64,000 bases of DNA from a virus (lineage: Duplodnaviria > Heunggongvirae > Uroviricota > Caudoviricetes): IMG/VR virus record IMGVR_UViG_3300009149_000021, one strand, 5' to 3'. Under the pieces are notes generated by a model, which had not been told where the DNA came from, ran no database searches, and saw only the letters and a list, made by a program, of their open reading frames with translations. Numbering within the stretch: the stretch's first letter is position 1; each line of letters starts with the position of its first letter. Of the stretch, positions 8,987 through 32,909 are shown piece after piece. Made by a program: the position numbers and the translations under genes.

Positions 8987-10720
8987 TTATTGTGTGTTTC
9001 CAAACGTTTCTGTCTCGATTTGGAAATATATTTTCTTTCTTCTTTTGGTTTTTTCCTGTTTTACAACAGGTTTATTTCTATCAGGATAACTATTACCAGA
9101 AGAAGTATTATTGAAGATATCGTTAACTTTTGCGGCAAATTGAATTATCCCCTCAGACCATCCACCAAGAATAAATGTTCTTTCATAATTCTCAGGAAGA
9201 AGAGAATCTTCATATCCCGCAATCTGACATAGGAATACGTTAACATTTCTATTAACCTTATTCCTATATTCTTTAACTAATTTAGGAACATCAATATAAT
9301 TGGATGTGCTTCTTAGCCATCTATAGTTGTTGTAATCTGATGGATCAAGTCCATACAATCCACCATGACCAGCTTGCATATCAGAATAGACGAATATGTT
9401 GTCCCAGTGTACTTTATTTTTTATAGCATCACTGAACGCCAACCATATTCCATTTTCTGTTGCACCACCAATTTCTGAACCAACTTCTTCAACAGTTTTA
9501 AGTTGATCGAAAATTGAAGATTTTTTCCTTATAGGAATCATCTTCAGTCTATCGCCAAACACACCAACAATACCTTCGTCGGAAACCATCCCAGTTATAA
9601 CACCCATCAAATTTCCAATATGGGAAACTGTGGATGTTCCATAAACGCTTAGATGTCCACTCTGTGCTGATCCAGAATTATCAACCAGGATCAAATTTCT
9701 TCCTTCTATTCTTGGAAGATTTCCCATTGATCGAGTCAGACATTCTTCCAAACCATCGAGAATAACAGAAGAAGCTATGTGTTCCACTATTCTGTATGCT
9801 GAATAATATCTAAAAGGAATTTGTCTCCCATCTGCTGCAGTTCCGACAAGTTTGTCCAACCAATATTTATGGTGGACTTTATTCTCAATGAAATTTCTGA
9901 TGTTTCTCAGAAGAGCCATGTGTCCCATGACATCAATACAATCTTTCCATGGTCTTCCTGCTGATCTCATTGATTCCCATGTTTCTCTTCCATCATCATT
10001 GAGTTTGAGTTTATCATCCAAAAGCTTCAATGTATTATCACCGAATGCACCAGCTAAACGAATAACATCAACAGTCTTGACATCTCTGTTCTCCATCCTA
10101 TATTTCGATAAGGTGTATTCGTTTGCATTTTTCAGAAAGTCAGACCATGATCTTTTCAAACTGTTTGGAATTGGTTTTCCATATGCGGCTAATTGATATG
10201 ATAATCCAGTGGCAGGTTCATCGCCTCTCTTGATTATGTGTTTTGCATATTTCCTTATAAGGCCAGTACCCTTAACCTTTGGATGGTTAGCTGCTCTTAT
10301 CAATATTGCTTGTGGTGTGACCCTCATATTATCAATATTTCTCAGATCACATGCTATCTTAAGAGTTTCCTCAGCATTATATCTCAATGCTTCATCAATG
10401 CATTTTTCGATTGTCTTGACTGGAGTTAAATTTCTCCATTCATAATCATCAATTGCATTGAGGGTATCTCTTAAATATTCTCTAGCTTTATCAGATATCC
10501 CAGATCTCCTAAGACCTACATCAGATCTTTTTCTTTTATCTTTCCTATCTGATTTATAATATTGTGGTTCACCGAAGAAACATGAAGCAGCAACAACACT
10601 CAATCTCAATAATGGATTATTAATATCAAATGAAGTTCCTCCCATGAAATTCTTATGAGCCGAATCATAAATCTTTTTCTCTGCTAAACTTTCATTCCTT
10701 TTCTTGTTTAAATAACTCAT
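8987..10720 (-). CDS. rsr: Ro60/TROVE-domain protein with C-terminal vWA (MIDAS) domain; Rsr-like
   Basis: N-terminal LLRLSVVAASCFFGEPQYY matches the Ro60 signature RFLCFGSEGGTYY; C-terminal LILVDNSGSAQSG is a DxSGS MIDAS motif. Established Ro60 = TROVE + vWA architecture. AAAGGAG RBS upstream of ATG. Confidence 0.7.
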   Translation of the reverse strand: MSYLNKKRNESLAEKKIYDSAHKNFMGGTSFDINNPLLRLSVVAASCFFGEPQYYKSDRKDKRKRSDVGLRRSGISDKAREYLRDTLNAIDDYEWRNLTPVKTIEKCIDEALRYNAEETLKIACDLRNIDNMRVTPQAILIRAANHPKVKGTGLIRKYAKHIIKRGDEPATGLSYQLAAYGKPIPNSLKRSWSDFLKNANEYTLSKYRMENRDVKTVDVIRLAGAFGDNTLKLLDDKLKLNDDGRETWESMRSAGRPWKDCIDVMGHMALLRNIRNFIENKVHHKYWLDKLVGTAADGRQIPFRYYSAYRIVEHIASSVILDGLEECLTRSMGNLPRIEGRNLILVDNSGSAQSGHLSVYGTSTVSHIGNLMGVITGMVSDEGIVGVFGDRLKMIPIRKKSSIFDQLKTVEEVGSEIGGATENGIWLAFSDAIKNKVHWDNIFVYSDMQAGHGGLYGLDPSDYNNYRWLRSTSNYIDVPKLVKEYRNKVNRNVNVFLCQIAGYEDSLLPENYERTFILGGWSEGIIQFAAKVNDIFNNTSSGNSYPDRNKPVVKQEKTKRRKKIYFQIETETFGNTQ

Positions 10721-10750
10721 TTTTCACTCCTTTAAAATGTTTTAAAGAGA

Positions 10751-10791
10751 AACGTAAAAAGAGGCATAGCAATATATAATCACTATGCCTC
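10751..10791 (-). terminator. rho-independent terminator (minus strand) between the Y-RNA-like repeats and rsr
   Basis: GAGGCATAG-(13 nt)-CTATGCCTC 9-bp stem followed by TTTTTACGTTTCTCTTT on the minus strand. Confidence 0.5.
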
Positions 10792-10804
10792 ATGAAAAGT
10801 AATG

Positions 10805-10870
10805 AGGAGACTTATATGCAAGGGTATTTTTTCATAAACCATTGAAGTAACCCATTGCTACCACTGCCCC
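10805..10870 (-). ncRNA. tRNA-like repeat unit B (short form)
   Basis: GGCAGTGGTAGCAATGGGTTACTTCAATGG...ACCCTTGCATATAAGTCTCC; GGGT/ACCC is a compensatory change relative to GAGT/ACTC in unit C1. Confidence 0.4.
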
Positions 10871-10879
10871 ATTAAAAAC

Positions 10880-10948
10880 ATGAGAGAGACTTATATGAAA
10901 GAGTATTTTTTCACCATTGAAGTAACTCTTTCTTCCACTACTCTCATA
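10880..10948 (-). ncRNA. tRNA-like repeat unit C1 (short form)
   Basis: GAGTAGTGGAAGAAAGAGTTACTTCAATGGTGAAAAAATACTCTTTCATATAAGTCTCTC; 7-bp stem AAAGAGT/ACTCTTT. Confidence 0.4.
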
Positions 10949-10957
10949 AAATATACC

Positions 10958-11102
10958 AAGAGACTTAATAAGAAAGGTGTTTTCTTTTGCCATCGCTCTA
11001 ACCATGCTGAGCTACATGACACCTTTGAGGGCGGCATGATGGGATTTGAACCCACGACATATGGTTCCAATAATTGAAGTAACCTTTCTAACCACTGCTC
11101 GG
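10958..11102 (-). ncRNA. tRNA-like repeat unit C2 (long form with T-arm and authentic-looking D-arm)
   Basis: GAGCAGTGGTTAGAAAGGTTACTTCAAT ... GTGGG-TTCAAAT-CCCAT ... GTAGCTCAGCATGGTTAGAGC; no acceptor pairing, so not a canonical tRNA. Confidence 0.4.
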
Positions 11103-11111
11103 TTTTGATAT

Positions 11112-11235
11112 ATAAAGGAAGAGACTAGGCGATAGGGTTTTTTAATTCAGCGGGATTTGAACCCACATTAGTCAATTTACAAGATTGATTTTATACCAGA
11201 TTGAAGTAACCCATATCTATCACTGCTTCCTATTT
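11112..11235 (-). ncRNA. tRNA-like repeat unit C3 (long form with T-arm)
   Basis: GAAGCAGTGATAGATATGGGTTACTTCAAT ... GTGGG-TTCAAAT-CCCGC. Confidence 0.4.
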
Positions 11236-11263
11236 AATTTAACTTTGTTCTCTTTTTCTTAAG

Positions 11264-15235: not shown

Positions 15236-16207
15236 TCATCCACCGATTGACATTAGAAGCGGAGACCCAGATGGAAGAATCTTTTCTGGGAGTTTTCCAT
15301 CCCACTTTTTGGCTACTTCCAATTGAGCATCTGCTTTTACTCTCTCGATATCAAGTTTGATTTGGGCAATTGCTGCATCCTGTGCTTCTGCAAATCGCTG
15401 AGCGACATACAACTCTGTGTCTGCTATTTCCTTGTCTTTTTCATTGATTTTTTTCTGTGCCTCTAATAGTTGTGTGGCAACCTTTATTCCATTCTCAGCA
15501 ATAAATGTTTTATTTATTGCTTCTTGAATTTCTTTATCTTCATAAGTCAAGCCACCAACAATTCCGAGATAGTCCACTGTTATTCCTTTCTTTGCAAAGA
15601 ATGCTTTGGTTTCCTCACATACAATACTGGATACTTTATCTTTTTCTTCTTTGCACTTTGTCAAGTCCCGTTTGCCGAACTCCCTGGAAAGGATCTCCTG
15701 TACTCGTCCACGTATATTTGTATTAACCACGCTGGTCAATTCTTTGCCGGCATAATAATATAGAAATGATGCGGCATCATTTTCAAGAACTGAACAAGTG
15801 ATATTTATTCCCACGCTGAATCCAATTGAATCTTTCGATTCAACAGATAATACTTCATTCTTATTACTGGTTCCTGTTGTTCCATCATTCGTCCATTCAC
15901 AAGTCACTGGGGTTCTATCAACTTTAATAACTTTCACTGTCGGAATCCATATAAACTGATAATAAAATCTTCCAGTGTGTCTTGCCCTAAGAGGAATGTT
16001 TATTCTCTTCGCAGCGACTTTTGATTCTTCTAAGAATTCAACAGACATGAATTTTCCCTGATTTGTTTTTGTTGATCCTTCGAGTGGTACTACGAATGCT
16101 GTTTCATTTGCTTCGATTTGTTCGAACTGTTCAAGTTCTGGTGGTCCAACACAACCTGCAAAGAAGACGAATGCTACTGCAAGCAGCATAACCAATAATG
16201 TTTTCAT
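15236..16207 (-). CDS. SPFH/band-7-like lipoprotein
   Basis: N-terminal signal with lipobox-like FFAGC; C-terminal ITVDYLGIVGG..EIQEAINK..AQRFAEAQDAAIAQ resembles the SPFH (stomatin/HflK) core. Confidence 0.45.
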   Translation of the reverse strand: MKTLLVMLLAVAFVFFAGCVGPPELEQFEQIEANETAFVVPLEGSTKTNQGKFMSVEFLEESKVAAKRINIPLRARHTGRFYYQFIWIPTVKVIKVDRTPVTCEWTNDGTTGTSNKNEVLSVESKDSIGFSVGINITCSVLENDAASFLYYYAGKELTSVVNTNIRGRVQEILSREFGKRDLTKCKEEKDKVSSIVCEETKAFFAKKGITVDYLGIVGGLTYEDKEIQEAINKTFIAENGIKVATQLLEAQKKINEKDKEIADTELYVAQRFAEAQDAAIAQIKLDIERVKADAQLEVAKKWDGKLPEKILPSGSPLLMSIGG

Positions 16208-16512: not shown

Positions 16513-16588
16513 TGGTACCCGAGGAGGGACTTGAACCCCCAACGCCATGGTCCTAAACCATGCGCCTCTGCCATTGGGCTACTCGGGC
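16513..16588 (-). tRNA. tRNA with anticodon UAG (Leu by anticodon) but short variable arm; CCA encoded
   Basis: GCCCGAG..CATGG-TTTAGGA-CCATG-GCGTT-GGGGG-TTCAAGT-CCCTC-CTCGGGT-A-CCA. Confidence 0.6.
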
Positions 16589-18169: not shown

Positions 18170-18610
18170 TCAAAGAAACCTTTGCAAGCTTCTAATTTCC
18201 ATATTCGACCAAACAATTGTCTGGTCACAATCTTCACAGTATTGGAAGTTTGCCACTTTTCCGATACGGTGTTTTTGATCTTTTTCTAGCTCACCATCAT
18301 ACAACAAATACGTCTGACCAAATGATATATGATCAATTGATTTTAGAATTGTGCATGTGTGAGGTTTTCTCTTCTTAGTCAAGAAATTAAAACACGGATG
18401 TTTGTTCATGTTATCTTCATCAATTCTTTCTCTATCCAGGACAGAGAATTGAACCTTATCGAAATTCATTTTCTTTCGAGTTAATAAATCGATGGTTTTT
18501 CGTTTTCTATTATATTCAATCCATCGCTTCCCATCTACTCGAATATGATTTTTACCTGATTTCTCAAGGTCGCCAATAGCCACTTCTATTTTGCTTTTTG
18601 ATTTGCTCAT
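18170..18610 (-). CDS. hypothetical protein
   Basis: ORF 146 aa; overlaps the next gene by 4 nt. Confidence 0.4.
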   Translation of the reverse strand: MSKSKSKIEVAIGDLEKSGKNHIRVDGKRWIEYNRKRKTIDLLTRKKMNFDKVQFSVLDRERIDEDNMNKHPCFNFLTKKRKPHTCTILKSIDHISFGQTYLLYDGELEKDQKHRIGKVANFQYCEDCDQTIVWSNMEIRSLQRFL

Positions 18611-20187
18611 GCACGCCCCCCTATTTCTTTTCCACGTTTCACAATTTCAGGATCAGGATCAGATAACATTCCATCGATATTACCATAGGTTTCTAATGCA
18701 GTCATCCTTATCTTAGAGAAAGGATGCTTCATATCCCCTTTAGTAAAACCATGGATCTTCTTTGCTTCAAATGCTATTCTGACACTCGTATCATTTGTGT
18801 GGTGGGGAGTGAACCCCAGTTCTTTGCAGGCATGCAGGCGCATGTTATTATTTGGATCAAACAGATTATCTGACATGAATCCATCCTTCCTACATTTTTC
18901 CAGGCGTTCCTTATATGGAATGCTTAGATTAATTCTAGGATCGATAGATAGTTTAGAAAACACATCAATGTTGCTCTTGACAACATCCGAGCACGTCTCC
19001 CTGTATTTCATGTCCTTGCTAAAACATCCTCTGATCAGATTCAGAGGATTTTTCATGAACTGATAGAACGCAAACTGTTCTATATCTGATTTCTCATATT
19101 CCACATCGAAATCATTATACACGAAACAATAAATATTCTTTATTATTTCTGGTAACTTTTTCCATTCTTCCTTTATAACTCTTGCCACATTCTTATGCTT
19201 TGTATTCATCAACAAAATTATAATGGATTTTGTTGGAGCTATTGACATTGCTTTTTCCATGTTAATGATTTGGATGAGATCATTGCTCTTGATCTCTTTT
19301 GCTTTACTTGAAAGGAACTTGACAACCATTGCCTGTTGTGTTCCTTTGAAATTCCTTATAAAGAATTCCCAGAATAATTTCTTACTCCGGATCTTTTCTC
19401 TGAAAATGTCCAAATATTTGCAGACATCTGCATCAGATTTATTTTTCAGAATTTTCATCATTACTAGATCCGTCTCAGATCTTTTCCGTTTCTTTCTATA
19501 GAACACGGAGAGTCGAGAGAAGATCATTGCAGATATCTTCGTATCTTTTAAAATGTAATCTGCTAATGGATTGATTTTGGTTGAGCTTGATTTCATATTT
19601 GCAAATATTTCATTTATATATTTGCACGAGCTTCTTTTCAGAATCTCATATAACTCATCAGTATTTTCATTTTTCAAATGAAAATCTATCAAAGATTTGA
19701 TCTCGTACGACTGGGGGAGCATTTCGAATCTTTTATAAAATTCATCGTTCCTCAGATCTGAGATCGCAGTCCTGGCGCTGATTGAATTATCATGCGTTAT
19801 TTTGAATTGCATCTTTCCAAGCATGATCTTATCAATGCTCGAATTGACCTGGATGTTTGTTTTGACCTCCAGGCTTTTCCACAACTCTAACAATTCTGAT
19901 GGTATCATATTTCTCAACCCTTCATGCAGAATTATTATATTCTGTTTGAAGATGTCCGGATCATCATTTGGCAGTTTTAATAAATAGAATATTCTTTCGA
20001 CCATTCTAGTAATTGCGTTTTTTTGTCTCTTAGAGAAAAACAATAATGATATATCATCATTATAATTTTTCAAACACCCAGCTAAACTTTTCTCTTCCTT
20101 CTCAATCGCGCTCATTCTCGCGAGATGTGCAATTGAACTTATTTCGGAATTCTTTGTTGTAATTCCTTTGAAAAAATTATCAAGCAT
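18607..20187 (-). CDS. hypothetical protein
   Basis: ORF 526 aa; no recognisable motif. Confidence 0.45.
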   Translation of the reverse strand: MLDNFFKGITTKNSEISSIAHLARMSAIEKEEKSLAGCLKNYNDDISLLFFSKRQKNAITRMVERIFYLLKLPNDDPDIFKQNIIILHEGLRNMIPSELLELWKSLEVKTNIQVNSSIDKIMLGKMQFKITHDNSISARTAISDLRNDEFYKRFEMLPQSYEIKSLIDFHLKNENTDELYEILKRSSCKYINEIFANMKSSSTKINPLADYILKDTKISAMIFSRLSVFYRKKRKRSETDLVMMKILKNKSDADVCKYLDIFREKIRSKKLFWEFFIRNFKGTQQAMVVKFLSSKAKEIKSNDLIQIINMEKAMSIAPTKSIIILLMNTKHKNVARVIKEEWKKLPEIIKNIYCFVYNDFDVEYEKSDIEQFAFYQFMKNPLNLIRGCFSKDMKYRETCSDVVKSNIDVFSKLSIDPRINLSIPYKERLEKCRKDGFMSDNLFDPNNNMRLHACKELGFTPHHTNDTSVRIAFEAKKIHGFTKGDMKHPFSKIRMTALETYGNIDGMLSDPDPEIVKRGKEIGGRA

Positions 20188-20256: not shown

Positions 20257-22059
20257 TTATAAAATACTTATTTTTTCTGTTTCTTCTTTTACAACGTCTA
20301 CTTTTACTGGTTCCGATTTACTCAAGATACCATAAACCATCATTGTATTTTTTGGAATCTCGATTGGTTTTTTACCATCGTTCCATATTACAATTCTGAG
20401 TTCATCTTCAAAGGATTCTGTCACAACATTTGGTTTTGTCAGAACATGGACATCTTCCAATGTATCCAATGCACTCCTTGGTTCAAAATGCATATGATAT
20501 CCTTTCTCAATGCTACATCTCCACCCAGTCCTTACAAATTTTGTTTCGCCTGGATTTATAATATTTTGTTCAATTGAAAAGAATCCAAATCCCGGAGATT
20601 TTCTTTCTTTGTATGATGGTACTATTAAATCTATCTCAGCAATATCAGGACACGCGATAAAATTTATTGTCGTGTCTGGTGTGTTATTGTAGTTGTATGT
20701 GCTATAACCACGATTGTAGTTGTTTGCCGCATAGTTGTTTGCCGCGTAGTTGTTTGATGCAGCTGATGCATTCGTTCCGCTTGTGGTTGTTGGTTTTGTA
20801 ACAGTTGACTCAGTCGTAGTCGGTTCGGTTTCTGTTGACTCAGTTGTGACTGGTTTGGTTTCTTCTGGTTTTGTGTCAGTCTCTATTGATATCAAAACAA
20901 AATCTTTACCATCAACAACTTTTATTTTATCCGAATCTCGTTTAACTTCTTCATATTTTTCTAATGCATGCCTGCTTTGTTCACTGAGCGGCTCCGCATT
21001 CGCGATATAGATGGTTGCTAAAATTTCATAAAAATTTGATTTAAATAACCACGTTGCAGCATTATTCAATCTTTTTATTACTGGTTTATCATATCCATCA
21101 GCACCCGCATCTATGAACAATCCCTTTCCGAGTTTGCAAAGATATTCTCCTAATTGACGTTCCTCAATTGGTTTTCCATTCTTGGCAAAAATAGAATTGA
21201 TTCTATTTAGATTTACATATTTATCAAAAAGATGACTTAGCAGAACTTCTGCTTTTGCATCTTCAGTTTTTATATCTTCGGTTGTTTCATTTCCCATTGC
21301 TTTCTCCATAAGATTTAATTCTGGCGTATCCACTGTTTTTTGGTTTGTTATTTTTTTAAATATTTCTCTCACAAGTTTAAAAATCATTCTTTCACCCTTA
21401 AATGTTTTATTATGCACAATAGGTCTAAAAACAATTCCTCCAATTAAATTATTTTCTAGTGAAATTTCATGCAACATCAATGATATAGCAGAAATCTTTT
21501 TGTCTGGTGTCAATTTTAATATATCTTCCATTTTTCCGGATCTTATCACTGGTACAGTTTTCATCTCTAGCATTCTTGCCAATTCTTTAACTCTGTCCCA
21601 TCCAACAAAAATTCCATTTATTGATATATCGTGTATCCACCAGTGATTTTGTGGAGAATAAATAACCATAGAATCCATTGGAATTCCAAATTTTGTTGGG
21701 TTGCCGGCTGGGTGTTTAAAATTAAAGAATCCACCAAACAGCACTCCATATATTTGTACCTTTACTTTTTCTGATCTACAAAATTCAATTATTTTTTTAT
21801 AATGAATAGATACAACATCCCCAGCACAACCATAAAAGCTTTCATCTGCAAAACCATATTTTCCACCAATTGCCAAATTGCCATCAGGATCACATAATAT
21901 GGAAACACAACTTCCTCTTATTTTTTCCGTCGCAACCCACTCATGACTATTTCCATTTGAGGCTTCGATGTCTGCTATAACTGTTGGTGATAATTCCTGT
22001 ATTCCATAATATCTTCGAAATACATCTTTTAGTTTTTCTGGTTGTAGAATATAAGTCAT
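20257..22059 (-). CDS. RNA-ligase-like nucleotidyltransferase (Rnl2-type motifs) fused via Thr/Pro-rich linker to a dUTPase-fold domain
   Basis: N-terminus: ATEKIRGS (motif I KxxG), GGIVFRP (motif IV-like), FKLVRE (motif V-like). Linker: TKPEETKPVTTESTETEPTTT then NNYAANNYAANNY. C-terminus: AEIDL, PRSALD and VIWNDG match dUTPase motifs 1, 2 and 3-tail; motif 3 core is TESFE instead of IDSDY. Confidence 0.5.
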   Translation of the reverse strand: MTYILQPEKLKDVFRRYYGIQELSPTVIADIEASNGNSHEWVATEKIRGSCVSILCDPDGNLAIGGKYGFADESFYGCAGDVVSIHYKKIIEFCRSEKVKVQIYGVLFGGFFNFKHPAGNPTKFGIPMDSMVIYSPQNHWWIHDISINGIFVGWDRVKELARMLEMKTVPVIRSGKMEDILKLTPDKKISAISLMLHEISLENNLIGGIVFRPIVHNKTFKGERMIFKLVREIFKKITNQKTVDTPELNLMEKAMGNETTEDIKTEDAKAEVLLSHLFDKYVNLNRINSIFAKNGKPIEERQLGEYLCKLGKGLFIDAGADGYDKPVIKRLNNAATWLFKSNFYEILATIYIANAEPLSEQSRHALEKYEEVKRDSDKIKVVDGKDFVLISIETDTKPEETKPVTTESTETEPTTTESTVTKPTTTSGTNASAASNNYAANNYAANNYNRGYSTYNYNNTPDTTINFIACPDIAEIDLIVPSYKERKSPGFGFFSIEQNIINPGETKFVRTGWRCSIEKGYHMHFEPRSALDTLEDVHVLTKPNVVTESFEDELRIVIWNDGKKPIEIPKNTMMVYGILSKSEPVKVDVVKEETEKISIL

Positions 22060-22631
22060 TCTTTCTCCTCTTTATCAATTAGGTCAAATAAAGAAATATT
22101 AAATTTAATCCATGCAAACGAATTTCCCCATGTGTGTTTTGTTCCTGGACTAGCAGGCATATCTGTTTCTGTCCATGAAAAAGCAAACATAATATCACAA
22201 TTTCCATTTTCAATATTTCTCTTTTTAAAACCACTAAATATTTTTATCTCCGCACCAAGATCAATTGCTTTTTGTATTTCTAATAAAGAATTTATTCCTG
22301 TTATTCTTTGAAAGTTTTTATGATAATAATTGCTTATTGATCCGGGACTTTTAAATCCTTCCTCCACATACTTTCCGTTTTTGAATTCCGATGGTAGACA
22401 CAAGATCAATTTGTATATAGGATTTTCTAAAAATAATTGAACAGCAAGATGATCAGACCATGCCGCACCACCAGAAATTAAAATGAACTCATCATTAGTG
22501 TAAAGTTTTACAATGACATTCATCTTCTTATTTAATAGGCTTTTCATATTCATAAAAAGTTCTGGTGTCAATTTATCATTAATTTTAAAATCTCTCCCCG
22601 CAGTACCTATAATTGCTATCTTCATTACCAA
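22056..22631 (-). CDS. DprA/Smf-like (SLOG superfamily) Rossmann-domain protein
   Basis: IAIIGTAGRD and LISGGAAWSDHLA match the DprA motifs (VAIVGSR ... ISGxAxGxDxxAH). Confidence 0.5.
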   Translation of the reverse strand: MVMKIAIIGTAGRDFKINDKLTPELFMNMKSLLNKKMNVIVKLYTNDEFILISGGAAWSDHLAVQLFLENPIYKLILCLPSEFKNGKYVEEGFKSPGSISNYYHKNFQRITGINSLLEIQKAIDLGAEIKIFSGFKKRNIENGNCDIMFAFSWTETDMPASPGTKHTWGNSFAWIKFNISLFDLIDKEEKE

Positions 22632-23527
22632 TCCTCATCCTCATCTTCATCTTCATAATCATCATCATCATATTCATCATATTCTTCCTCAGGTTCTGCT
22701 TCGGGCACTGCCTCAGATTCCATCCTAATACTAGGGGCACAACAGCTTTCCGAACGAACTGACAAAAATTCACCATCTGATTGACCTTCAGATGTTTCTT
22801 CCAAATCTGGTGGTTGATATTTTAATTCGGATATACGCATCCTAGATTCATGATATTCCTGTGGAAGATTGAAAAGAAAAATAACATTAAATAAACTTAT
22901 ATCATCTAAAAGACACACCAATCTAGGCAATATTACATTTTCCCAGATATTATGTTTATTTGCAAGGCCCGCGCCCACTTTAGATATGAGAAATATTTTA
23001 TCTTGAGATTTTCTAATACGATCAATTAAATTATCGGATTCTTCTTCATATACTTGCATGTATTCTTTTGCTGTATAATATGATGAGTCTGCGTGTGATG
23101 GATATTTTTTTGTTACAAATCCATATGAATTTAATTCATTTCTCAATTTAGCAGCCACACCACAACCTTCTCTCATTGTGTTATCACCAAATACAAAAAT
23201 ACATTCCTGATGATTTCTTAGAAAAATTTTATCTATGAAAACCTCTCTCCTAAGACACTTTTCATTCGAGCTATCACCCGTATTCATTCGACGTATTTTT
23301 CGTTCATATGCAGCATCATCTGGAAAATATTCCCACTCCTTTTCAATAAAAAGATTCTTTTCATCTATTCCTTCATCTAATTCCACATATATTTTTTTTC
23401 TCATCGCCTTGTGTTTATAATAAGAATCATATAAAGGTATAAAAGAGTGATCAATTCTTTTAAACAATTTATATTTCATTATTCTTAAATTATCTTTTTC
23501 GGCTAGTAGCGTATCATATAAATTCAT
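22625..23527 (-). CDS. hypothetical protein with extreme acidic C-terminal tail
   Basis: ORF 300 aa ending EPEEEYDEYDDDDYEDEDEDEDW. Confidence 0.4.
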   Translation of the reverse strand: MNLYDTLLAEKDNLRIMKYKLFKRIDHSFIPLYDSYYKHKAMRKKIYVELDEGIDEKNLFIEKEWEYFPDDAAYERKIRRMNTGDSSNEKCLRREVFIDKIFLRNHQECIFVFGDNTMREGCGVAAKLRNELNSYGFVTKKYPSHADSSYYTAKEYMQVYEEESDNLIDRIRKSQDKIFLISKVGAGLANKHNIWENVILPRLVCLLDDISLFNVIFLFNLPQEYHESRMRISELKYQPPDLEETSEGQSDGEFLSVRSESCCAPSIRMESEAVPEAEPEEEYDEYDDDDYEDEDEDEDW

Positions 23528-23539
23528 TCTTAATCTCGA

Positions 23540-24892
23540 TCATTTTATCATTTCAAGATATTTAAATGCATCGTTTTTATCAACGATTTCACCTTCCAAT
23601 GTTTTTTCAATTAATTCATTCTTTATATTTTTTATCCATGGTCCTGGTTCAAAACAAGAATAGAATTCCATTATTTCATTTCCATCGAGTGGTGATTTTA
23701 TTTCAGATGGTTTTTCTGGAATATACTCACATTCCAATATACTATCAAAAAATTCTGTATTTTTATCCAGTTCTATATCGGATTTTCCCAATAGTATTAG
23801 TGGTTGAAGAATCTCTACATGCTTTCTAATGAATCTTGAAAATAATCTTCTATTGGGTTTATTATCACATGCTTCCTTGAGATGCTTCACATCCATATGG
23901 CTTGCAACGAGTTTAGAAATGAAATTGGTTTCAACTCTTTTCATTTTTAAATCGTCACATATAATTCTGGCCATCGCTCCACCATAATACGCATGGGCTG
24001 TAAATTTATACATTCCTTCTTGTCCACTACGAGTTAGTAATTTTCCAGTATCATGTATAAGAGCGGCGAATCTTATTAAAACATCTGTCGTCAACTTTGA
24101 TACATTTTCCAAAACATCAATAGTATGCTCATATACATCTTTCCTATGCCACGCACTTGATTGAGAAAAATATTTCATGGATTGGACGGGCGGCACAATA
24201 TATTTTAATAACCCCGACCACTCAAGATGATATATAGCATTCCTTATATTTTCACTTGGACATCCAAGAATTTTAAATAATTCATCTCGAATCCTTTCTT
24301 TAGAAATTGACGCTATATTTCTACAATTTTTTGATATAGTCCTTGAGAGACTTTCATCTATATTGAATCCGAGTTGTGCCCTGAATCTCATTGCTCTCAA
24401 CATCCGCAACCAATCCTCTTCCATTCTTTTTTCGGGATCACCAATGGCTCTGATAATCTTTCTTTTAATATCACTCTGTCCATCAAAATAATCAATTATT
24501 TCACCAGTAATTGGATCCAATGCCAGTGCATTCATTGTGAAGTCTCGTCGTTTACAATCTTCTTCCAATGTTCTTGCTACTTCCACATCAGCATGTCTCC
24601 CATCACAATTGTGATCAGTCCTAAATGTTGTTATCTCATACATTTCATTTGGACCACCATCCTTTATTACTATTGTCAGAGTGAGATGTTTCAACCCAGT
24701 ATCTTTAATTGTTATTCGGTCATCATTATATTTTTCAAATATTTCTTTTATTTGATCGGGCATCGCAGATGTCGTAAAGTCATAATCTTTTGGGGTTCTT
24801 CCTAATATATTATCTCTCACACAACCACCAACCAAATAAATCTCATGTCCTGCGTCTTTAATTATCTTCGCAATTGTCTGTATCGAGTTCAC
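23540..24892 (-). CDS. cca: tRNA nucleotidyltransferase (CCA-adding enzyme) with HD domain
   Basis: Head-domain GGCVRD..DYDF; HD motif AALIHDTGK; 450 aa. Confidence 0.8.
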   Translation of the reverse strand: MNSIQTIAKIIKDAGHEIYLVGGCVRDNILGRTPKDYDFTTSAMPDQIKEIFEKYNDDRITIKDTGLKHLTLTIVIKDGGPNEMYEITTFRTDHNCDGRHADVEVARTLEEDCKRRDFTMNALALDPITGEIIDYFDGQSDIKRKIIRAIGDPEKRMEEDWLRMLRAMRFRAQLGFNIDESLSRTISKNCRNIASISKERIRDELFKILGCPSENIRNAIYHLEWSGLLKYIVPPVQSMKYFSQSSAWHRKDVYEHTIDVLENVSKLTTDVLIRFAALIHDTGKLLTRSGQEGMYKFTAHAYYGGAMARIICDDLKMKRVETNFISKLVASHMDVKHLKEACDNKPNRRLFSRFIRKHVEILQPLILLGKSDIELDKNTEFFDSILECEYIPEKPSEIKSPLDGNEIMEFYSCFEPGPWIKNIKNELIEKTLEGEIVDKNDAFKYLEMIK

Positions 24893-25793
24893 TTAATTTA
24901 TCCCCCTTATAAAAATTTATCAATTTATGAACATCAACAATTTTACCTTCTATATTTCTTAATATATCAGCTATATTAGCATTCTTCTCAAGTTTCAAAT
25001 CACCATAAAATTCTTCAATGCATTTTATTAATAACATTTTTATTTTTTCTTCATCAACTTCATATGGTATTGTAGAAGCATCATATAACTTCTCAAGCCT
25101 TGCTTCATTTCTTTCAAAAAAATCTAAGATTCTCTGTATTTCCCACTCGCCTCTGCGAATAGATTTTAAAACTTCATTATGCTTCATAAGATCCATTTCG
25201 CCAGTAGTTAAGAGTTCCTCAACCTCAAGGAGAAGTCTGACTAAATGTGATGCAAATTTTACATCATAACCATATTTCTCAACTATTGCTACACGCTTTC
25301 CTTCCGGAACTTTTTTCTGCATCTTATCTTTCTGGCTCATCGCATATCCTCTGAAGGTGTGCCAACATTGTTTGCTGACAAATATTCTTCTATTTTCCAG
25401 AACCATTTTTCCTATTCGTGTTATGTGAGTGTGTAATTGCTCTCTGGTAAAGAGAGAATCTAACATGTTGGGGTTGTTATTAGCCACCAATCTAAAATAC
25501 CGCACAATTGAAAATATTGTTCCTTCAGCTTCTTTCTTTTTATATATAAATTTCCCTGGTGTTTGAAATTGTTTAAATATGGGAATATTGTTATCGAATC
25601 CATGTATGTATCCAAATAAATTTGGAACTATAAATTGTTTTGGTGGAATTGTAAAACCGCAAATATCATAATCCGATTGGTCGGTTTGACATCCATATGC
25701 TTGTGATCCAACAATAGTTTCATATTGTAGGTTATCTACTATCCACTCATCAAAACAACAACATGCTTGTAAAACGGATTTATTTATAATCAT
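24858..25793 (-). CDS. minimal Pol-beta-superfamily nucleotidyltransferase
   Basis: VGSQAYGCQTDQSDYDI fits the G[SG]-x(9-13)-D-x-D NTase signature. Confidence 0.5.
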   Translation of the reverse strand: MIINKSVLQACCCFDEWIVDNLQYETIVGSQAYGCQTDQSDYDICGFTIPPKQFIVPNLFGYIHGFDNNIPIFKQFQTPGKFIYKKKEAEGTIFSIVRYFRLVANNNPNMLDSLFTREQLHTHITRIGKMVLENRRIFVSKQCWHTFRGYAMSQKDKMQKKVPEGKRVAIVEKYGYDVKFASHLVRLLLEVEELLTTGEMDLMKHNEVLKSIRRGEWEIQRILDFFERNEARLEKLYDASTIPYEVDEEKIKMLLIKCIEEFYGDLKLEKNANIADILRNIEGKIVDVHKLINFYKGDKLSELDTDNCEDN

Positions 25794-25841
25794 TCACACC
25801 TCATTTGAAAAAGAGGGGATTTTCACCCCTCATGTATTCTT

Positions 25842-26042
25842 CTATACTATTTGACTTCCCCTGGCCCAATGACCAGTCTCCAAATCAATCACATATAAAT
25901 TTGGTTTTCCGTGCATTTCTTTCACCGGAGTCCCCGACTTATCCGTTGGCCGTAATAATTTTTCAATATTAACAATTATGGACTCTACAACTTTTCCACC
26001 AATATTAACAGAAACAAAATCACCAATATGATATTTAGGCAC
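25842..26042 (-). CDS. small hypothetical protein
   Basis: ORF 66 aa. Confidence 0.3.
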   Translation of the reverse strand: MPKYHIGDFVSVNIGGKVVESIIVNIEKLLRPTDKSGTPVKEMHGKPNLYVIDLETGHWARGSQIV

Positions 26043-26077
26043 GGAATCCTCCTACTTATTTTTTCCTACTAATTGAA

Positions 26078-26527
26078 CTAACATGGTCGATTCTCCATAA
26101 GATACTTATAAGCCTCATGATACTTTTTAACTAATTTTATATCATTAGATGAAACTTTTTCCAACCTCAATACATTTATATTGTCTTTCAGGTCAGCAAT
26201 TTTTACCTGATATGCTATTGAATTTTCACACACACGTGCAATATATTGCATATATTCTTCTTCATCTCTCTTTGATATTGCGTCGATTGCACAGAGAACA
26301 TCATCACTAAATCCCATCTTCTTCAATGTCTTTATAGATATCGGTGTGTCTTCGATTATATCATGTAGGATTGCTGTTATGACAATATCTTGCTCATTAG
26401 GGACCGAATTCATTACTCTGAGGCAGTGAAGAATATATGGTTGATTTGCTCTGTCCGTGGCCCCATAATGAAAATTCAATGCAACCTTCAATGCCTTTTC
26501 AATTAAATTTTCTTCTCTAATTTTCAT
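26078..26527 (-). CDS. small HD-domain hydrolase, (p)ppGpp-hydrolase (SpoT/Mesh1)-like
   Basis: HCLRV...ILHDIIEDT matches the H...HD..EDT hydrolase signature of RelA/SpoT-type HD domains. Confidence 0.55.
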   Translation of the reverse strand: MKIREENLIEKALKVALNFHYGATDRANQPYILHCLRVMNSVPNEQDIVITAILHDIIEDTPISIKTLKKMGFSDDVLCAIDAISKRDEEEYMQYIARVCENSIAYQVKIADLKDNINVLRLEKVSSNDIKLVKKYHEAYKYLMENRPC

Positions 26528-27165
26528 CCCAGTTCAATCCCCTTTGCTGTATCGCCAACATCTTTTAGAACTCCAACATGACACACGGCAAACTGCTTCT
26601 TATAATTTTCTTTCTCTTTTGATTCGTCCCATCTAGCCATTTCATAGAATGCCCCAAATACAAAATTATTAAGTGTTATGATAGCAGGGAGTGTCGTTGT
26701 GTAATCATTATAATGAAATTCTCCTTTTGATATCGTTATAGAGACATCTAACAGCTCCATCAAAAACTCAGAAATATCAATTCTATATATACCATCATCA
26801 TCGTCACATTTTCCATTTAGTGTTGCAAATGTTTCCATAGCATCAAAATATTTGTCATCATCAACAGATATTTCTTCTGGTCGATATGTCATGAATAACT
26901 CACAATAATCCAATGCTTTTTTATCTGATGGTTTTTTATTTTTTATTTTGGCAAACATATTTGTGAAATATGGACCATAAAAATTGAGTGTCTGTAGCAA
27001 TGGATATTTATGCACAGTCTTGAAAAAACTCCTAAACGTAAACCCTTTTTCCAACGTTATCATGTCATTTATCCTAGACAAAATTAATAATGGGTCCACA
27101 TTATAAAATGTAGACGACTCACTTCTTTTGTATTGGATTTGACCATTACCCTTTATATATAACAT
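26524..27165 (-). CDS. hypothetical protein
   Basis: ORF 213 aa; 4-nt overlap with the HD gene. Confidence 0.4.
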   Translation of the reverse strand: MLYIKGNGQIQYKRSESSTFYNVDPLLILSRINDMITLEKGFTFRSFFKTVHKYPLLQTLNFYGPYFTNMFAKIKNKKPSDKKALDYCELFMTYRPEEISVDDDKYFDAMETFATLNGKCDDDDGIYRIDISEFLMELLDVSITISKGEFHYNDYTTTLPAIITLNNFVFGAFYEMARWDESKEKENYKKQFAVCHVGVLKDVGDTAKGIELG

Positions 27166-27387: not shown

Positions 27388-28209
27388 TCAGGCCGGGTTT
27401 GCTCCTCTTTCCACTAAATACTCTTTTATCTCTGAATTGCAAGCATTTCTGACTAAATAATTTCTATGAAGATCTACCCTACAATTACATTCTTCCACAA
27501 GATATTTAATCAGAGACATATTTCCTTGTTTACATGCAACCTTTAAACTATAATGTGCACATGCATATGGTGGGCATCCTCTCGATATAAAATACTTTAC
27601 AATATCATTATACCCTTTTTCAGCAGCTCTTCTCATTGGATGACATTGATATTGCATGATGCTGGCACCTTTTTCTTCAACTAAGTATTTTACAATTTCT
27701 ATATTATCACTTTCAACAGCATAGGATATAAACAAATTATAAAAAACTTCTGGATAATTATCTATGAGTATTTTTGCAAAATCATTGTTTTCATACATAA
27801 TAGCATACTCAACAATCTTCTGAGGTTTTGGCAGATTATTTTTCCATTCTAGAAATAAATCTATATTATTTAAACATGCCAGCAATCGATATGCATTTTT
27901 TTGTGGTTCATAACCAGCGGTCCATGCTCTTAGAATATCAATAGAATTTTCACCTCTGTTGAAGATGTTTGCAAGATCTTTTATAAAAATAATATTGACA
28001 TTTTTACAAAGCATTTCCCGTGTTATTTCAAAATTTGTTTCTTTTTCTTTCTCTTTCTTCACTGGTGCATCATAATCTTTGATAAATGCTGCAAAAAAGT
28101 TTCTAATTGCTTCAAAAATCTTCACGTCAATCCTCCCAGATTTCTTTGATAACTTCTCTTTCTTTTTCCGATAAACCAACAATCCTATTAATAATTCTAT
28201 CTTTTTCAA
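27388..28209 (-). CDS. ankyrin-repeat protein
   Basis: Repeating AAEKGYNDIVKYFISRG / ACKQGNMSLIKYLVEE ankyrin-like units. Confidence 0.5.
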   Translation of the reverse strand: MKKIELLIGLLVYRKKKEKLSKKSGRIDVKIFEAIRNFFAAFIKDYDAPVKKEKEKETNFEITREMLCKNVNIIFIKDLANIFNRGENSIDILRAWTAGYEPQKNAYRLLACLNNIDLFLEWKNNLPKPQKIVEYAIMYENNDFAKILIDNYPEVFYNLFISYAVESDNIEIVKYLVEEKGASIMQYQCHPMRRAAEKGYNDIVKYFISRGCPPYACAHYSLKVACKQGNMSLIKYLVEECNCRVDLHRNYLVRNACNSEIKEYLVERGANPA

Positions 28210-29782
28210 ACCCTTTTGGCATTAACCCTTCTGGTTCAAATGGAATGTATGCTGGATCATCATATCTATGAAATTCTCTGACCTCTTCAACATTTGCGAT
28301 TTTCCTAGCCCACACGGACAAATTTGTTGACCCACATTGCATATCACAATTATACGCTCTTTGATTTTCCTCATCCCAATATGGTCTATCGCAAGAAATA
28401 GTATATTTAAAAACATCCAAAAAATTCAGATGTTTGGCCAAAAACCATTGTTCACTTTTCATCAGATCACTCAAACCATAAAAAAATTCTATTCTATTCC
28501 CACAAATTGTGCCTGTTTTAAAAAGCGAATTTAAAGAATCTATAAAGTTTCTCGAATTATCTGGATAAGATCCAGACTCTGTCATATTTGCCCACCCAGC
28601 ACACAAATACACAAAATCATATTCATTTTTTAATATCAACCCTTCAGCATATGCCGCCATGACTGTAGAAAAAACCATGTTTCTTCCAGCAGTCCATGCT
28701 ATTGTTTGCTTCAATCCTTCTTCTGTCCCAGTCTCGATTTTAACATTTTCGTTCATCAACATACTAAAATTATCGATTTTTGAGTATGCATCCTCTAAAC
28801 TAATTATTTCCAAAGGGATGTTCATTTCTCTGCAAATATTTTGTATTGCCCACTCTTCACATTTTTGACCCCTGTGTCCATATTTAAAATGGACGGCGGT
28901 CACATCTTTATCCAATTTTTTCAAAAGTGCCAATGTTGTTGTTGAATCTATTCCTCCGCTTGCCGCTACCAAATGTTTAACTCTTGGTGATTTTATAGAT
29001 TCCAAAATCTGTTTGTCCCACGATGGATGTGCGTAATTTGGTTCAAATGGTATTTTATTTATGAATCCAGAATCAATATCTATTTCTAAAATTCTGTGTG
29101 GTTGTATATTATGATGATACCAATCTTCCCAGACATTCATTCCATCAGTTTTAGATCCAGTTATATCCTCTATCACCTCTCCAATTGTTTCATTTAAACT
29201 ATGGAGCAAATAGCCATAACCTCTTATATAGCCCTGAGATAAAGGATTGTGATTCTTAATTGCGTATAATTTTTTCTTAAAAGAATCATACATTATAGCA
29301 GAAACACCACCACTTATAAATTCCATAGCAGCCTTAATATCATATCCATAATTTAAGTATGCATGGACAATTGCTTCAGAATCTATATCTGTGTGGAACG
29401 AAAATCCCCTTTGTTTCAATTCTGATATACTTTTTGTGGAAATTGCTCCATTGTGAACCAGACATATATTTCGTTCTTCTTCTCCTAGAAAAATTGGCTG
29501 CATTCCGTCTTCTGATGATTTTTCAGTTTCTGGTTGTGCTCGGCATATTCCAATAACTATATCATTTGGTCTTATCCCATCCGAATATAATTTTAAGATA
29601 TCATCTCTACAATCAGAATAACTTTTAGAATATCTTTTTCCAAAACTTGTATTATCATCCACGCCGATTACAACAAACGCACATCCATCATTTCCTCTTT
29701 TCTCCGCCCCTTTAAATAATAAATCTAATCTTTTTATTCCAAGAATAGATTCTCTTCCCCAGTATGCAAATATGCCACACAT
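28127..29782 (-). CDS. asnB: asparagine synthetase (glutamine-hydrolysing)-like
   Basis: N-terminal MCGIFAY (Ntn amidotransferase Cys2); PP-loop SGGIDST. Confidence 0.75.
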   Translation of the reverse strand: MCGIFAYWGRESILGIKRLDLLFKGAEKRGNDGCAFVVIGVDDNTSFGKRYSKSYSDCRDDILKLYSDGIRPNDIVIGICRAQPETEKSSEDGMQPIFLGEEERNICLVHNGAISTKSISELKQRGFSFHTDIDSEAIVHAYLNYGYDIKAAMEFISGGVSAIMYDSFKKKLYAIKNHNPLSQGYIRGYGYLLHSLNETIGEVIEDITGSKTDGMNVWEDWYHHNIQPHRILEIDIDSGFINKIPFEPNYAHPSWDKQILESIKSPRVKHLVAASGGIDSTTTLALLKKLDKDVTAVHFKYGHRGQKCEEWAIQNICREMNIPLEIISLEDAYSKIDNFSMLMNENVKIETGTEEGLKQTIAWTAGRNMVFSTVMAAYAEGLILKNEYDFVYLCAGWANMTESGSYPDNSRNFIDSLNSLFKTGTICGNRIEFFYGLSDLMKSEQWFLAKHLNFLDVFKYTISCDRPYWDEENQRAYNCDMQCGSTNLSVWARKIANVEEVREFHRYDDPAYIPFEPEGLMPKGFEKDRIINRIVGLSEKEREVIKEIWED

Positions 29783-32174: not shown

Positions 32175-32909
32175 TTAAAAACTCCCTGTTAAATAGTTAA
32201 CACTCAACCTTTTCAAATAATTTTCCGTAATTGTCTTTCTGGGATACTCAAAATTGTTTAAATTATCAGAATAATATTGTAATATGCTCCGATCATAAAA
32301 CGGACGAAATATCCCTAAATCAAACAAAATAACATTTTTCCTAAAACAAGCTTTACAACTCAGGCACTCGGTCGTGCCTGATGGTTTAAAACAAGAAAAT
32401 GTTAATTTTTGTAAATCATTTTCATCGAGAATAGTGTTTTTTAATGTTTGTTTCACCATTGCTATTTTAGAATACTCACTGAATAAACTTCCTATAGATA
32501 CTCTTTTGGAATATGTGCTCATAAAAAATTCATTGGATTTATCTATAAATATTTTTGAATTATCATGGACTCTATCATCTAAAGTATTACCTATTAAAAT
32601 AGAAAGATCATCCTTGTTGAAGTATTTCAATGTGATTAATATTAACATCAAATTCCGATATGGGATGAACACTTCATCTGCATCTTCCAACAGATCGAAT
32701 AGATCATGATATATTGGCAAAAACTTATCCATTAAATTTGATCCAAATTTCTTCGATAGTTGAGTGAGTGTCTCTTCTATTTTACTTAATTCTGCATGTT
32801 GATAATCAAGACCCATGTGGACATAAACAAAATAATCAGTAATATCGTGGATGTTCGCCAATGTGCACACTGAGTCGAGTCCGCCTGAGAATAATAATAT
32901 TTTTTTCAA
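32175..32909 (-). CDS. QueC-like PP-loop ATPase (7-cyano-7-deazaguanine synthase family)
   Basis: MKKILLFSGGLDS PP-loop; DYQH; IPYRNLMLILITL (QueC PGRN region); C-terminal Cys cluster CFKPSGTTECLSCKAC. Confidence 0.55.
   Translation of the reverse strand: MKKILLFSGGLDSVCTLANIHDITDYFVYVHMGLDYQHAELSKIEETLTQLSKKFGSNLMDKFLPIYHDLFDLLEDADEVFIPYRNLMLILITLKYFNKDDLSILIGNTLDDRVHDNSKIFIDKSNEFFMSTYSKRVSIGSLFSEYSKIAMVKQTLKNTILDENDLQKLTFSCFKPSGTTECLSCKACFRKNVILFDLGIFRPFYDRSILQYYSDNLNNFEYPRKTITENYLKRLSVNYLTGSF

Follow-up and report, generated by a model that had tools for sequence, protein, structure and literature searches.

Why should a phage encode an Aph1-family hydrolase, an RlaP-family nucleotidyltransferase and a CCA-adding enzyme next to one another, and what might they do together? 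The question is raised by IMG/VR record IMGVR_UViG_3300009149_000021, a 64,000-nucleotide (nt) stretch of viral DNA with a GC content of ~32% (hereafter the window). In it, eight consecutive minus-strand open reading frames (ORFs), g1 to g8, form an island with outer limits at exactly 20257 and 27165 (Table 1). A sequence-only reading had recognized eight consecutive genes with these same limits, and had described them as rich in RNA-end enzymes, which the matches in Pfam, PHROG, NCBIfam and the Protein Data Bank (PDB) bear out. It proposed that the island heals or re-matures tRNAs damaged by host toxins, and a role in tRNA repair is retained here. With about even confidence, we read the cluster as a lineage-specific tRNA 3'-end repair module of a jumbo phage, directed against toxins that attack the acceptor end, into which unrelated counter-defense genes have been inserted. 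We favor this reading because the three enzymes whose active sites look intact all act on 3' termini. Toxins of the CCA end had already been named among the possible targets, and they remain a sensible choice.

Three predicted 3'-end enzymes in a conserved gene order

The g7 protein aligns over residues 7–146 with residues 6–144 of the '(p)ppApp hydrolase' in PDB entry 7SMG (E 3.7e-28, 101.6 bits). This entry is the 149-residue Aph1 of a Bacteroides caccae prophage (PMC10083569), and the match takes in the C-terminal 53-residue region of Aph1. The SpoT/Mesh1-like HD hydrolase of the sequence-only reading can thus be assigned more precisely to the Aph1 family. PHROG 990 matches g7 with 155 bits, and Pfam HD_4 stays below its cutoff. 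The HD dyad is formed by H55 and D56. When the 7SMG alignment was placed onto the published residues (PMC10083569), five of the six signature residues of Aph1 (D24, R96, D116, R119, K133 and Y134) were found to be kept, as D25, R98, R121, K135 and Y136 of g7; only D116 differs, with N118 in its place. Phages commonly carry Aph1-like genes (238 records). Aph1 strips the 3'-pyrophosphate from adenosine nucleotides (PMC10083569). The small alarmone hydrolases (SAHs) MESH1 and ATfaRel remove the 3'-pyrophosphate that toxSAS enzymes add to A76 of tRNA, which restores aminoacylation (bioRxiv 10.1101/2021.04.30.441581). CapRel is an anti-phage toxSAS that pyrophosphorylates tRNA, and a phage SAH neutralizes toxSAS toxins (PMC9712102).

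The CCA-adding enzyme with an HD domain, which had also been predicted, is confirmed in g4 by the Pfam domains PolyA_pol (121.9 bits), PolyA_pol_RNAbd (42.8 bits) and HD (32.1 bits, cutoff 22), and by PHROG 2244 (246.8 bits). Its top NCBIfam model is the CCA tRNA nucleotidyltransferase, with 239.6 bits against an equivalog cutoff of 290. The best relatives in the PDB are the CCA-adding enzymes 6ibp and 1miv (163.7 and 154 bits), followed by poly(A) polymerases at ~105–110 bits. The motifs GGCVRD...DYD, RRDFTMNA and EDWLR can be read in the sequence, and the metal-binding H...HD motif of the HD domain is intact (YEHTIDV...ALIHDTGK). All seven tRNA genes that ARAGORN finds in the window encode their 3' CCA; for this reason, a role of g4 in tRNA repair is favored over one in maturation. 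A requirement of g4 for tRNA maturation was rejected on the same ground.

The g5 protein, previously taken for a minimal Pol-beta nucleotidyltransferase, does have a Pol-beta active site (VGSQAYGCQTDQSDYDI, which fits hG[GS]...DxD as GS...DYD). It is not minimal, being a member of the RlaP family (Pfam PF10127, 66.8 bits, cutoff 23; PHROG 388, 161 bits). The PDB sequence search with g5 gave no match. RlaP adds one or two nucleoside monophosphates to damaged RNA 3'-OH ends and is required in vitro to restore the aminoacylation of over-damaged tRNA after its repair (PMC12776372). RlaP genes are associated with ligases, and an Rnl2 homolog is encoded three genes downstream of g5, or two genes downstream in the relative described below. 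As judged from their motifs, g4, g5 and g7 look catalytically intact, and all three would act on the 3' ends of RNA or adenosine nucleotides.

The same enzymes are found together in a distant relative. A homolog of g1, P0002, is encoded on NCBI contig JALOBK010000007.1 (L007), which overlaps JGI contig Ga0265297_10003606 (L010). The blastp comparison gives the following order on L010: RNA polymerase beta (69% identity), three conserved ORFs, an ankyrin gene, Aph1-like (48%), RlaP (62%), CCA enzyme (52%), DUF7831 (40%), Rnl2/dUTPase-like (37%) and two conserved ORFs; WYL_2 (60%) and TROVE (65%) genes lie farther along. The observed synteny thus defines a conserved core of five contiguous genes, Aph1-RlaP-CCA-DUF7831-Rnl2/dUTPase, at 37–62% protein identity in L010/L007. 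Genes g8, g6 and g2 have no counterpart in L010, nor do the Gat-QueC, Band_7 and DNA ligase genes of the window. The contiguity of five genes in a distant relative supports a cluster that did not arise by chance. The closest annotated phage RlaP genes (those of Caulobacter CcrBL9 and Xanthomonas Xoo-sp13) and the Aph1-like genes of 4MG, ABPH49 and Atu_ph07 have no other island genes within 4–7 kb. Since the closest phage RlaP and Aph1-like genes stand without the other island genes, the juxtaposition of Aph1, RlaP and CCA enzyme is lineage-specific. No nucleotide-level relative of the island was found by blastn among 50,697 phage records, and the same contig is present in a Logan assembly of SRR5210834. 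The PADLOC scan returned nothing relevant to the island. Two ORFs of 526 and 146 residues directly downstream of g1 hold the same position in L010 with 36–37% identity. Neither has a Pfam, PHROG or NCBIfam match, and the longer one had no tblastn match in phages; they may be part of the same unit as the island.

From these assignments we infer substrates, targets and cooperation between the genes as follows. The conserved core would keep the 3' (acceptor) ends of tRNAs chargeable during infection. The g7 hydrolase would strip 3'-pyrophosphates; the substrate class shown for Aph1 is (p)ppApp, and its proposed action here is on tRNA A76 marked by toxSAS enzymes such as CapRel and FaRel2. By analogy with Escherichia coli Cca, the HD domain of g4 may then remove 2',3'-cyclic or 3'-phosphates, after which the nucleotidyltransferase head would rebuild the missing C-C-A. 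RlaP (g5) might extend other damaged RNA 3'-OH ends by one or two nucleotides. If g1 acts on RNA at all, it could bind ends or nicks, or could act in the third, sealing step of ligation only. A ligation arm of the module is doubtful. Attack on the tRNA acceptor end, by pyrophosphorylation (toxSAS/CapRel) or by tailing of the MenT type, is a recently recognized arm of anti-phage defense, and phage countermeasures have barely been charted. An adenosine 3'-pyrophosphohydrolase encoded beside two RNA 3'-end-rebuilding enzymes suggests the testable idea that phage Aph1/SAH enzymes act on tRNA, beyond free alarmones.

The fourth core gene, g3, encodes an N-terminal region, a DUF7831 core (~residues 96–190; Pfam, 62.2 bits, cutoff 27) and a long acidic C-terminal tail. 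Its homolog holds the same position in L010/L007, so g3 is a conserved member of the core cluster. Stand-alone DUF7831 homologs of ~134 residues occur in many phages. Neither the single sequence nor a profile found a PDB match for its fold, and a single-sequence model was unusable (mean predicted local distance difference test score 35.7). A relationship of DUF7831 to the g2 family was considered and rejected, because hhalign shows the two to be unrelated. The acidic tail ends in an aromatic residue both in g3 (...EDEDEDEDW) and in its homolog (...DEDEGDPSF; L010 9098-9976), and recalls the interaction tails of single-stranded DNA-binding proteins or nucleic-acid mimics. Both g3 and g1 appear from their conservation to be partners of the cluster.

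The Rnl2-like/dUTPase-like fusion

The g1 protein joins a divergent Rnl2-family domain to a dUTPase-fold domain through a low-complexity linker. Its N-terminal part matches Pfam RNA_ligase PF09414 (37.4 bits, cutoff 27). The best NCBIfam model is Rnl2 TIGR02307, at 71.8 bits against an equivalog cutoff of 197.15. By tblastn, residues 13–340 align with T4-type Rnl2 (gp24.1) at 21–25% identity; the gp24.1 orthologs matched adjoin gene 24, and one of them scores 272 bits to the T4 Rnl2 structure, PDB 2hvq. An exhaustive phmmer search, in which 1.84 billion representatives were scanned, gave 510 homologs of g1, mostly of ~330 residues. A word-index protein search with full-length g1 or with its residues 1–400 matched only g1 itself. 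Searches for related loci in IMG/VR with g1 or RlaP found only distant, non-syntenic loci, and a scan of genome contigs gave one unrelated actinobacterial Rnl2 homolog. The ligase-like domain is best regarded as a true, if non-canonical, Rnl2 homolog. The identities of DNA ligase and capping enzyme, either of which would have contradicted the sequence-only reading, are ruled out by the tblastn, phmmer and NCBIfam results. The family given there thus holds on the evidence of PF09414, tblastn and phmmer; a canonical ligase it is not, as the residue audit below indicates, and the dUTPase domain had gone unnoticed.

In the residue audit, g1 was aligned with 135 homologs, and each column with a conservation of at least 90% was examined. 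The nucleophile of motif I, K35 in T4 Rnl2, is kept as K46 within EKIRG, in a column that is 96% lysine. D120 of motif IIIa, K225 (the first lysine of motif V) and R266 of the C-domain are likewise kept, as D144, K228 and R286. R55 of motif Ia is changed to K67, and E99 of motif III, E204 of motif IV and K227 (the second lysine of motif V) are lost, being V106, G207 and V230 in g1. Each of these four residues (R, E, E and K) is present in 95–96% of the homologs. D292 of the C-domain, conserved in at least 95% of the 135 relatives, is replaced by G313. P0002 has K, V, E and I at the positions of R55, E99, E204 and K227, i.e., the same substitutions as g1 except that the glutamate of motif IV is retained. 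Pfam T4_Rnl2_C (PF18043) is undetected in g1 and P0002 and detected in other homologs, and the Rnl2 alignments still reach residues 324–347 of g1. In T4 Rnl2, E99 and R55 hold the ribose of AMP, and K227 the phosphate. Adenylylation of the enzyme is abolished by the mutations R55K and K227Q, which spare phosphodiester formation on pre-adenylylated ends (PMC3149579). Because family-invariant residues for that step are absent, g1 probably cannot adenylylate itself in the manner of T4 Rnl2.

The C-terminal domain matches dUTPase PF00692 (31.7 bits, cutoff 22) and the PDB dUTPases 8hrv (E 4e-9) and 8y1q; against the NCBIfam dut model it scores 50.6 bits, under the cutoff of 102.55. Five catalytic motifs define dUTPases. 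In the comparison with 8hrv and 8y1q, the aspartate of motif I is changed to glycine and that of motif III to threonine, the arginine/glutamine of motif IV is lost, and the protein ends before motif V. The dUTPase-fold domain of P0002 (558 residues) shows the same pattern of motif loss. P0002 is the sole other Rnl2/dUTPase-like fusion among the best 150 matches listed from that phmmer search. It shares 41% identity with g1 overall: 39% in the nucleotidyltransferase domain, 28% in the linker and 62.5% in the dUTPase-fold domain, the best-conserved portion of g1. With conservation of this kind, g1 is a non-canonical protein under selection, not a gene in decay.

Canonical catalytic residues are missing from both folds of g1, RNA ligase and dUTPase alike, which makes the protein a candidate either for a decoy or for new chemistry. 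It would be a rather unlikely outcome, although one worth stating, that g1 is a new RNA-end enzyme or pseudoenzyme, e.g., an adenylylation-deficient ligase with natural equivalents of R55K/K227Q, mounted on a trimeric dUTPase-fold hub. Together with DUF7831, RlaP, the CCA enzyme and Aph1, it would then form a machine that reverses attacks on the acceptor end, namely pyrophosphorylation, trimming and aberrant tailing. Under the same supposition, g1 would seal only pre-activated ends or take another nucleotide donor.

Inserted genes and the wider window

Genes g2, g6 and g8 look like window-specific insertions outside the repair chemistry; they are read in this way because they are missing from L010. 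The fold given for g2 in the sequence-only reading (DprA/SLOG) stands, as a Rossmann-like SLOG fold closest to YpsA/DprA. Its place in a repair unit does not, since the gene is absent from L010 and its homologs occur without RNA-repair genes, in giant-virus-like contigs, in early regions of phages and in N4-like phages. No match to g2 was found in Pfam, PHROG, NCBIfam or PADLOC, or in the PDB by sequence search with the single sequence or a profile. Viral YpsA-like SLOG proteins have been proposed to counter signals of the cyclic ADP-ribose (cADPR) type (Iyer et al. 2022, PMC9503650), and g2 is probably an independent counter-signaling gene inserted into the cluster. Close homologs (43–47% identity) sit on the giant-virus-like contigs L016 (ENA contig_20762, 1.14 Mb) and L014, which suggests that phages and giant viruses of eukaryotes have exchanged this gene. 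These contigs are rich in ankyrin, BTB, F-box, leucine-rich repeat and Ras genes. The g6 ORF has no Pfam, PHROG or NCBIfam match and does not figure in the gene-call list of the source contig; it may not be a real gene. For g8, no Pfam, PHROG, NCBIfam or PADLOC match and no tblastn match in phages was found.

Table 1. Coordinates of the island genes, their parts and other features of the window
Feature	Positions	Strand	Description
tmRNA gene	3021-3353	-	Rfam RF00023, 74.5 bits, E 4e-27; not called by ARAGORN
Repeat unit	5697-5710	-	GTTACTTCAATGGT
Calcineurin-like phosphoesterase	6233-6865		adjoins the MBL-fold gene
MBL-fold protein	6991-7770	-	Pfam Anti-Pycsar Apyc1, 61.3 bits (gathering score 50); beside the tRNA cluster
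tRNA match	7799-7870	-	Rfam only; 43 bits, 3' end CTCA
tRNA match	8441-8513	-	Rfam only; 43.8 bits, 3' end CCCA
TROVE/Rsr-like gene	8987-10720	-	577 aa
Repeat units	10721-11263	-	~79 nt apart; GTTACTTCAATGGT
YrlA match (weak)	10968-11089	-	29.7 bits (gathering score 69)
tRNA-like match (weak)	11142-11213		
SPFH/Band_7 protein	15236-16207	-	directly downstream of tRNA-Leu(tag)
tRNA-Leu(tag)	16513-16588	-	
Two ORFs	18170-20187	-	526 aa and 146 aa; directly downstream of g1
g1	20257-22059	-	600 aa; Rnl2-like + dUTPase-fold
g1 residues 463-600	20257-20673	-	dUTPase-fold domain without dUTPase catalytic motifs
g1 residues 351-462	20674-21009	-	low-complexity linker, T/E/P- and N/Y-rich, poorly conserved
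g1 residues 1-350	21010-22059	-	divergent Rnl2-family nucleotidyltransferase domain and degenerate Rnl2 C-domain
g2	22056-22631	-	191 aa; YpsA/DprA-like SLOG domain protein
g3	22625-23527	-	300 aa; DUF7831 protein
g3 acidic tail	22625-22700	-	terminal aromatic residue
g4	23540-24892	-	450 aa; class II CCA-adding tRNA nucleotidyltransferase, C-terminal HD phosphohydrolase domain
g5	24858-25793	-	311 aa; RlaP-family Pol-beta nucleotidyltransferase
Terminator-like hairpin and T-run	25813-25831	-	candidate transcript boundary in the g6/g5 gap; GAGGGGTGAAAATCCCCTC TTTTTC
g6	25842-26042	-	66 aa; no family match
g7	26078-26527	-	149 aa; Aph1-family HD hydrolase (adenosine 3'-pyrophosphohydrolase)
g8	26524-27165	-	213 aa, start uncertain (179 aa in the source-contig gene call); no family match
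Gat-QueC fusion	28127-29782	-	glutamine amidotransferase fused to QueC
QueC-like protein	32175-32909	-	second QueC-like protein
Ribonucleotide reductase, large subunit	50250-53993	-	split by an intein carrying an HNH endonuclease
Radical SAM protein	54772-55791	-	

The island is tightly packed, with overlaps of 4–35 nt and otherwise gaps of at most 48 nt. A terminator-like hairpin lies in the gap between g6 and g5. Its minimum free energy is −11.8 kcal/mol with a z-score of only −0.96, i.e., its folding energy is unexceptional, and comparable hairpin/T-run sites were found in other intergenic gaps of the window. In L010, the gap between Aph1 and RlaP measures 15 nt and has no terminator-like site. 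Co-transcription of the whole island is plausible and unproven.

The genome is of the jumbo-phage type. Among the products encoded in the window are split multisubunit RNA polymerase beta and beta' subunits, topoisomerase II subunits, SbcC/D, an NAD-dependent DNA ligase, an amidase and a YadA-head protein. The sequence-only reading also pointed to a phage tRNA set and an Rsr gene outside the island, and both are present: nine tRNA matches (the seven from ARAGORN and two from Rfam alone, which end without a clean discriminator-CCA), a tmRNA gene, and a TROVE/Rsr-like gene that matches TROVE proteins of the PDB (E 6.6e-9) and PHROG 850 (118.6 bits). The TROVE gene and a WYL_2 gene form a pair that is kept in L010. 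A weak YrlA match and a weak tRNA-like match precede the TROVE gene on its own strand, and repeat units upstream of it share the sequence GTTACTTCAATGGT (4 matches against 0.29 expected). These repeats may represent arrayed Y-RNA-like genes. The metallo-beta-lactamase (MBL) fold gene next to the tRNA cluster was earlier described as RNase Z-like. That identity was rejected, as the gene passes the Apyc1 cutoff; a cyclic-nucleotide phosphodiesterase is more likely. SPFH modules paired with tRNA-like RNA were reportedly proposed by Burroughs and Aravind in 2016 as scaffolds of RNA repair; here, a gene for an SPFH/Band_7 protein that is absent in L010 adjoins tRNA-Leu(tag). The Gat-QueC, QueC-like and radical SAM genes are parts of a 7-deazaguanine pathway, as in phage DNA modification.

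Rival readings and known systems

The module reading draws support from the location of the CCA/HD, RlaP and Aph1-like enzymes within 2.7 kb, in same-strand genes that overlap or abut, and from further elements of the known RNA-repair 'syntax' in the wider window (TROVE/Rsr with the weak YrlA match, Band_7, the calcineurin-like phosphoesterase, tRNAs and tmRNA). Several points weigh against it, and most of them would equally suit a cluster of independent auxiliary genes that are neighbors by inheritance and share no pathway. In such a cluster, Aph1 would clear the free (p)ppApp made by toxins of the toxSAS/Tas1 type and so protect ATP pools, the SLOG protein would bind or degrade cADPR-type immune signals, the CCA enzyme and RlaP would serve general RNA upkeep, and g1 and g3 would be unrelated. 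The activity of Aph1 was indeed assayed on free (p)ppApp only and not on tRNA (PMC10083569). Phage HD-alarmone hydrolases are classed as anti-signal enzymes, apart from RNA repair (Iyer et al. 2021, PMC7824862), and viral YpsA-like SLOGs are interpreted in the same way. Aph1 stands beside RlaP and the CCA enzyme only in two relatives that are collinear over the whole region, so the adjacency could reflect shared ancestry and not function; the nearest Aph1-like and RlaP homologs from other phages stand alone, and homologs of g2 occur in unrelated contexts, giant-virus-like contigs included. All coding-looking ORFs of at least 100 residues in the window lie on the minus strand, which makes the common orientation of the island genes uninformative, and the terminator-like hairpin divides g8–g6 from g5–g1. 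In addition, residues central to ligase activity are missing from g1. Against independence, the five core genes remain contiguous in the relative although at least six neighboring or interspersed genes differ. RlaP is by definition associated with ligases and lies here near an Rnl2 homolog and beside the CCA enzyme, and chemistry at the 3' end is common to all the intact enzymes. We regard the independent-gene explanation as possible, though not probable.

The sequence-only reading likened the island to T4 Rnl1/Pnk acting against PrrC. In a T4-style heal-and-seal pathway for anticodon-loop breaks made by PrrC, RloC or colicin-like nucleases, the HD and calcineurin-like phosphoesterases would heal the 3' end, RlaP would restore the excised nucleotide and the Rnl2-type ligase would seal the break. 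Phosphoesterases of both types and phage-encoded tRNAs are at hand, g1 keeps K46, D144, K228 and R286, and one proposed role of RlaP is to replace the nucleotide that RloC excises, before 5'-phosphate ligases act. The analogy fails, however, at the kinase: among the minus-strand ORFs of at least 90 residues in the 64-kb window, the only Walker-A motif is that of SbcC and no P-loop polynucleotide kinase was found. Without a kinase for 5'-OH ends in the window, no ligatable end would be made. The ligase itself is also in doubt, as g1 lacks equivalents of E99, E204, K227 and D292, carries lysine in place of R55 (a change that, like K227Q, kills adenylylation in T4 Rnl2), scores far under the Rnl2 equivalog cutoff and gives no T4_Rnl2_C match. 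Heal-and-seal is thus quite unlikely. The same losses could instead mean that g1, as a pseudoenzyme, serves as a structural component, scaffold or decoy, and that this role defines the real function of the cluster. A trimeric dUTPase-fold hub would then present three inactive ligase domains, to which RNA ends or a host factor would bind. Both active sites are eroded while the architecture remains conserved and the dUTPase fold is the best-kept part, and the best matches listed include only one other protein of this architecture. There is precedent in T4 Rnl1 (gp63), which also works non-catalytically in tail-fiber attachment. The retention of the motif I lysine, the motif IIIa aspartate and the motif V lysine nevertheless argues that some nucleotide chemistry persists; we consider this reading very unlikely. 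The 3'-end repair module therefore remains the reading that we prefer.

Among known systems, T4 is alike in that Pnk with Rnl1/Rnl2 against PrrC is a phage repair of host-damaged tRNA, in the homology of g1 to T4 Rnl2, and in the presence of an RlaP, NrdC.11. It differs in the kinase-phosphatase, which is missing from the window, and in a ligase domain that here lacks E99, E204, K227 and D292; the emphasis in the island is on 3'-terminal enzymes (CCA enzyme and Aph1) and not on anticodon-loop sealing. Bacterial RtcB-RlaP-RtcA operons, and RlaP with 5'-phosphate ligases (PMC12776372), likewise encode RlaP near an RNA ligase homolog. In the island, RtcB, RtcA and RtcR are absent, the partner is a degenerate Rnl2 and the immediate neighbor is a CCA enzyme. 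That enzyme resembles the E. coli-type CCA-adding and repair enzyme in its head, neck and RNA-binding domains and in the intact H...HD of its HD domain, whereas it is phage-encoded, scores under the NCBIfam equivalog cutoff and has only a putative HD phosphatase activity. Like Aph1 (7SMG) and the SAH antitoxins and phage SAH (PaSpo), g7 is phage-encoded and has the HD motif and five of the six specificity residues, with asparagine in place of D116 of Aph1. B. caccae Aph1 adjoins a MuF-fused (p)ppApp synthetase toxin as its immunity gene; in contrast, g7 has no synthetase neighbor and stands beside RlaP and the CCA enzyme. As for g2, its fold and the presence of homologs in phages and giant viruses agree with the viral YpsA-like SLOGs reported in 31% of jumbo phages and in nucleocytoplasmic large DNA viruses (PMC9503650), but its subfamily is missed by the Pfam, PHROG, NCBIfam and PADLOC models.

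The closest precedent is a described jumbo-phage set, which reportedly builds on the RNA-repair 'syntax' of Burroughs and Aravind from 2016. Jumbo phages are known to carry sets of ligases, RlaP, CCA enzymes, TROVE, phosphoesterases and tRNAs (Iyer, Anantharaman, Krishnan, Burroughs, Aravind 2021, Viruses; PMC7824862). The window shares with them tRNAs, an Rnl2-family homolog, RlaP, a CCA enzyme, HD and calcineurin phosphoesterases and TROVE/Ro, and these sets, too, are read as countering host attack on tRNA. The differences are that the genes are contiguous here, in a cluster that also takes in an Aph1-type hydrolase and a DUF7831 protein; that conserved catalytic residues are missing from the ligase homolog, which is joined to a dUTPase fold, where the paper mentions HNH fusions only; and that no polynucleotide kinase lies nearby. 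The sequence-only reading had held the gene combination to be undescribed. For the combination of ligase, RlaP, CCA enzyme, TROVE and tRNAs, this is contradicted by PMC7824862. For the exact juxtaposition of Aph1 with the RlaP/CCA cluster and for the Rnl2/dUTPase-like fusion it may stand, as no description of either was found. If neither a tRNA-acting Aph1 nor a novel g1 holds, the island would be one more instance of the described jumbo-phage RNA-repair toolkit. What it adds to that toolkit is a physical cluster enclosing Aph1, a conserved DUF7831 partner and an Rnl2-like/dUTPase-like fusion with degraded active sites.

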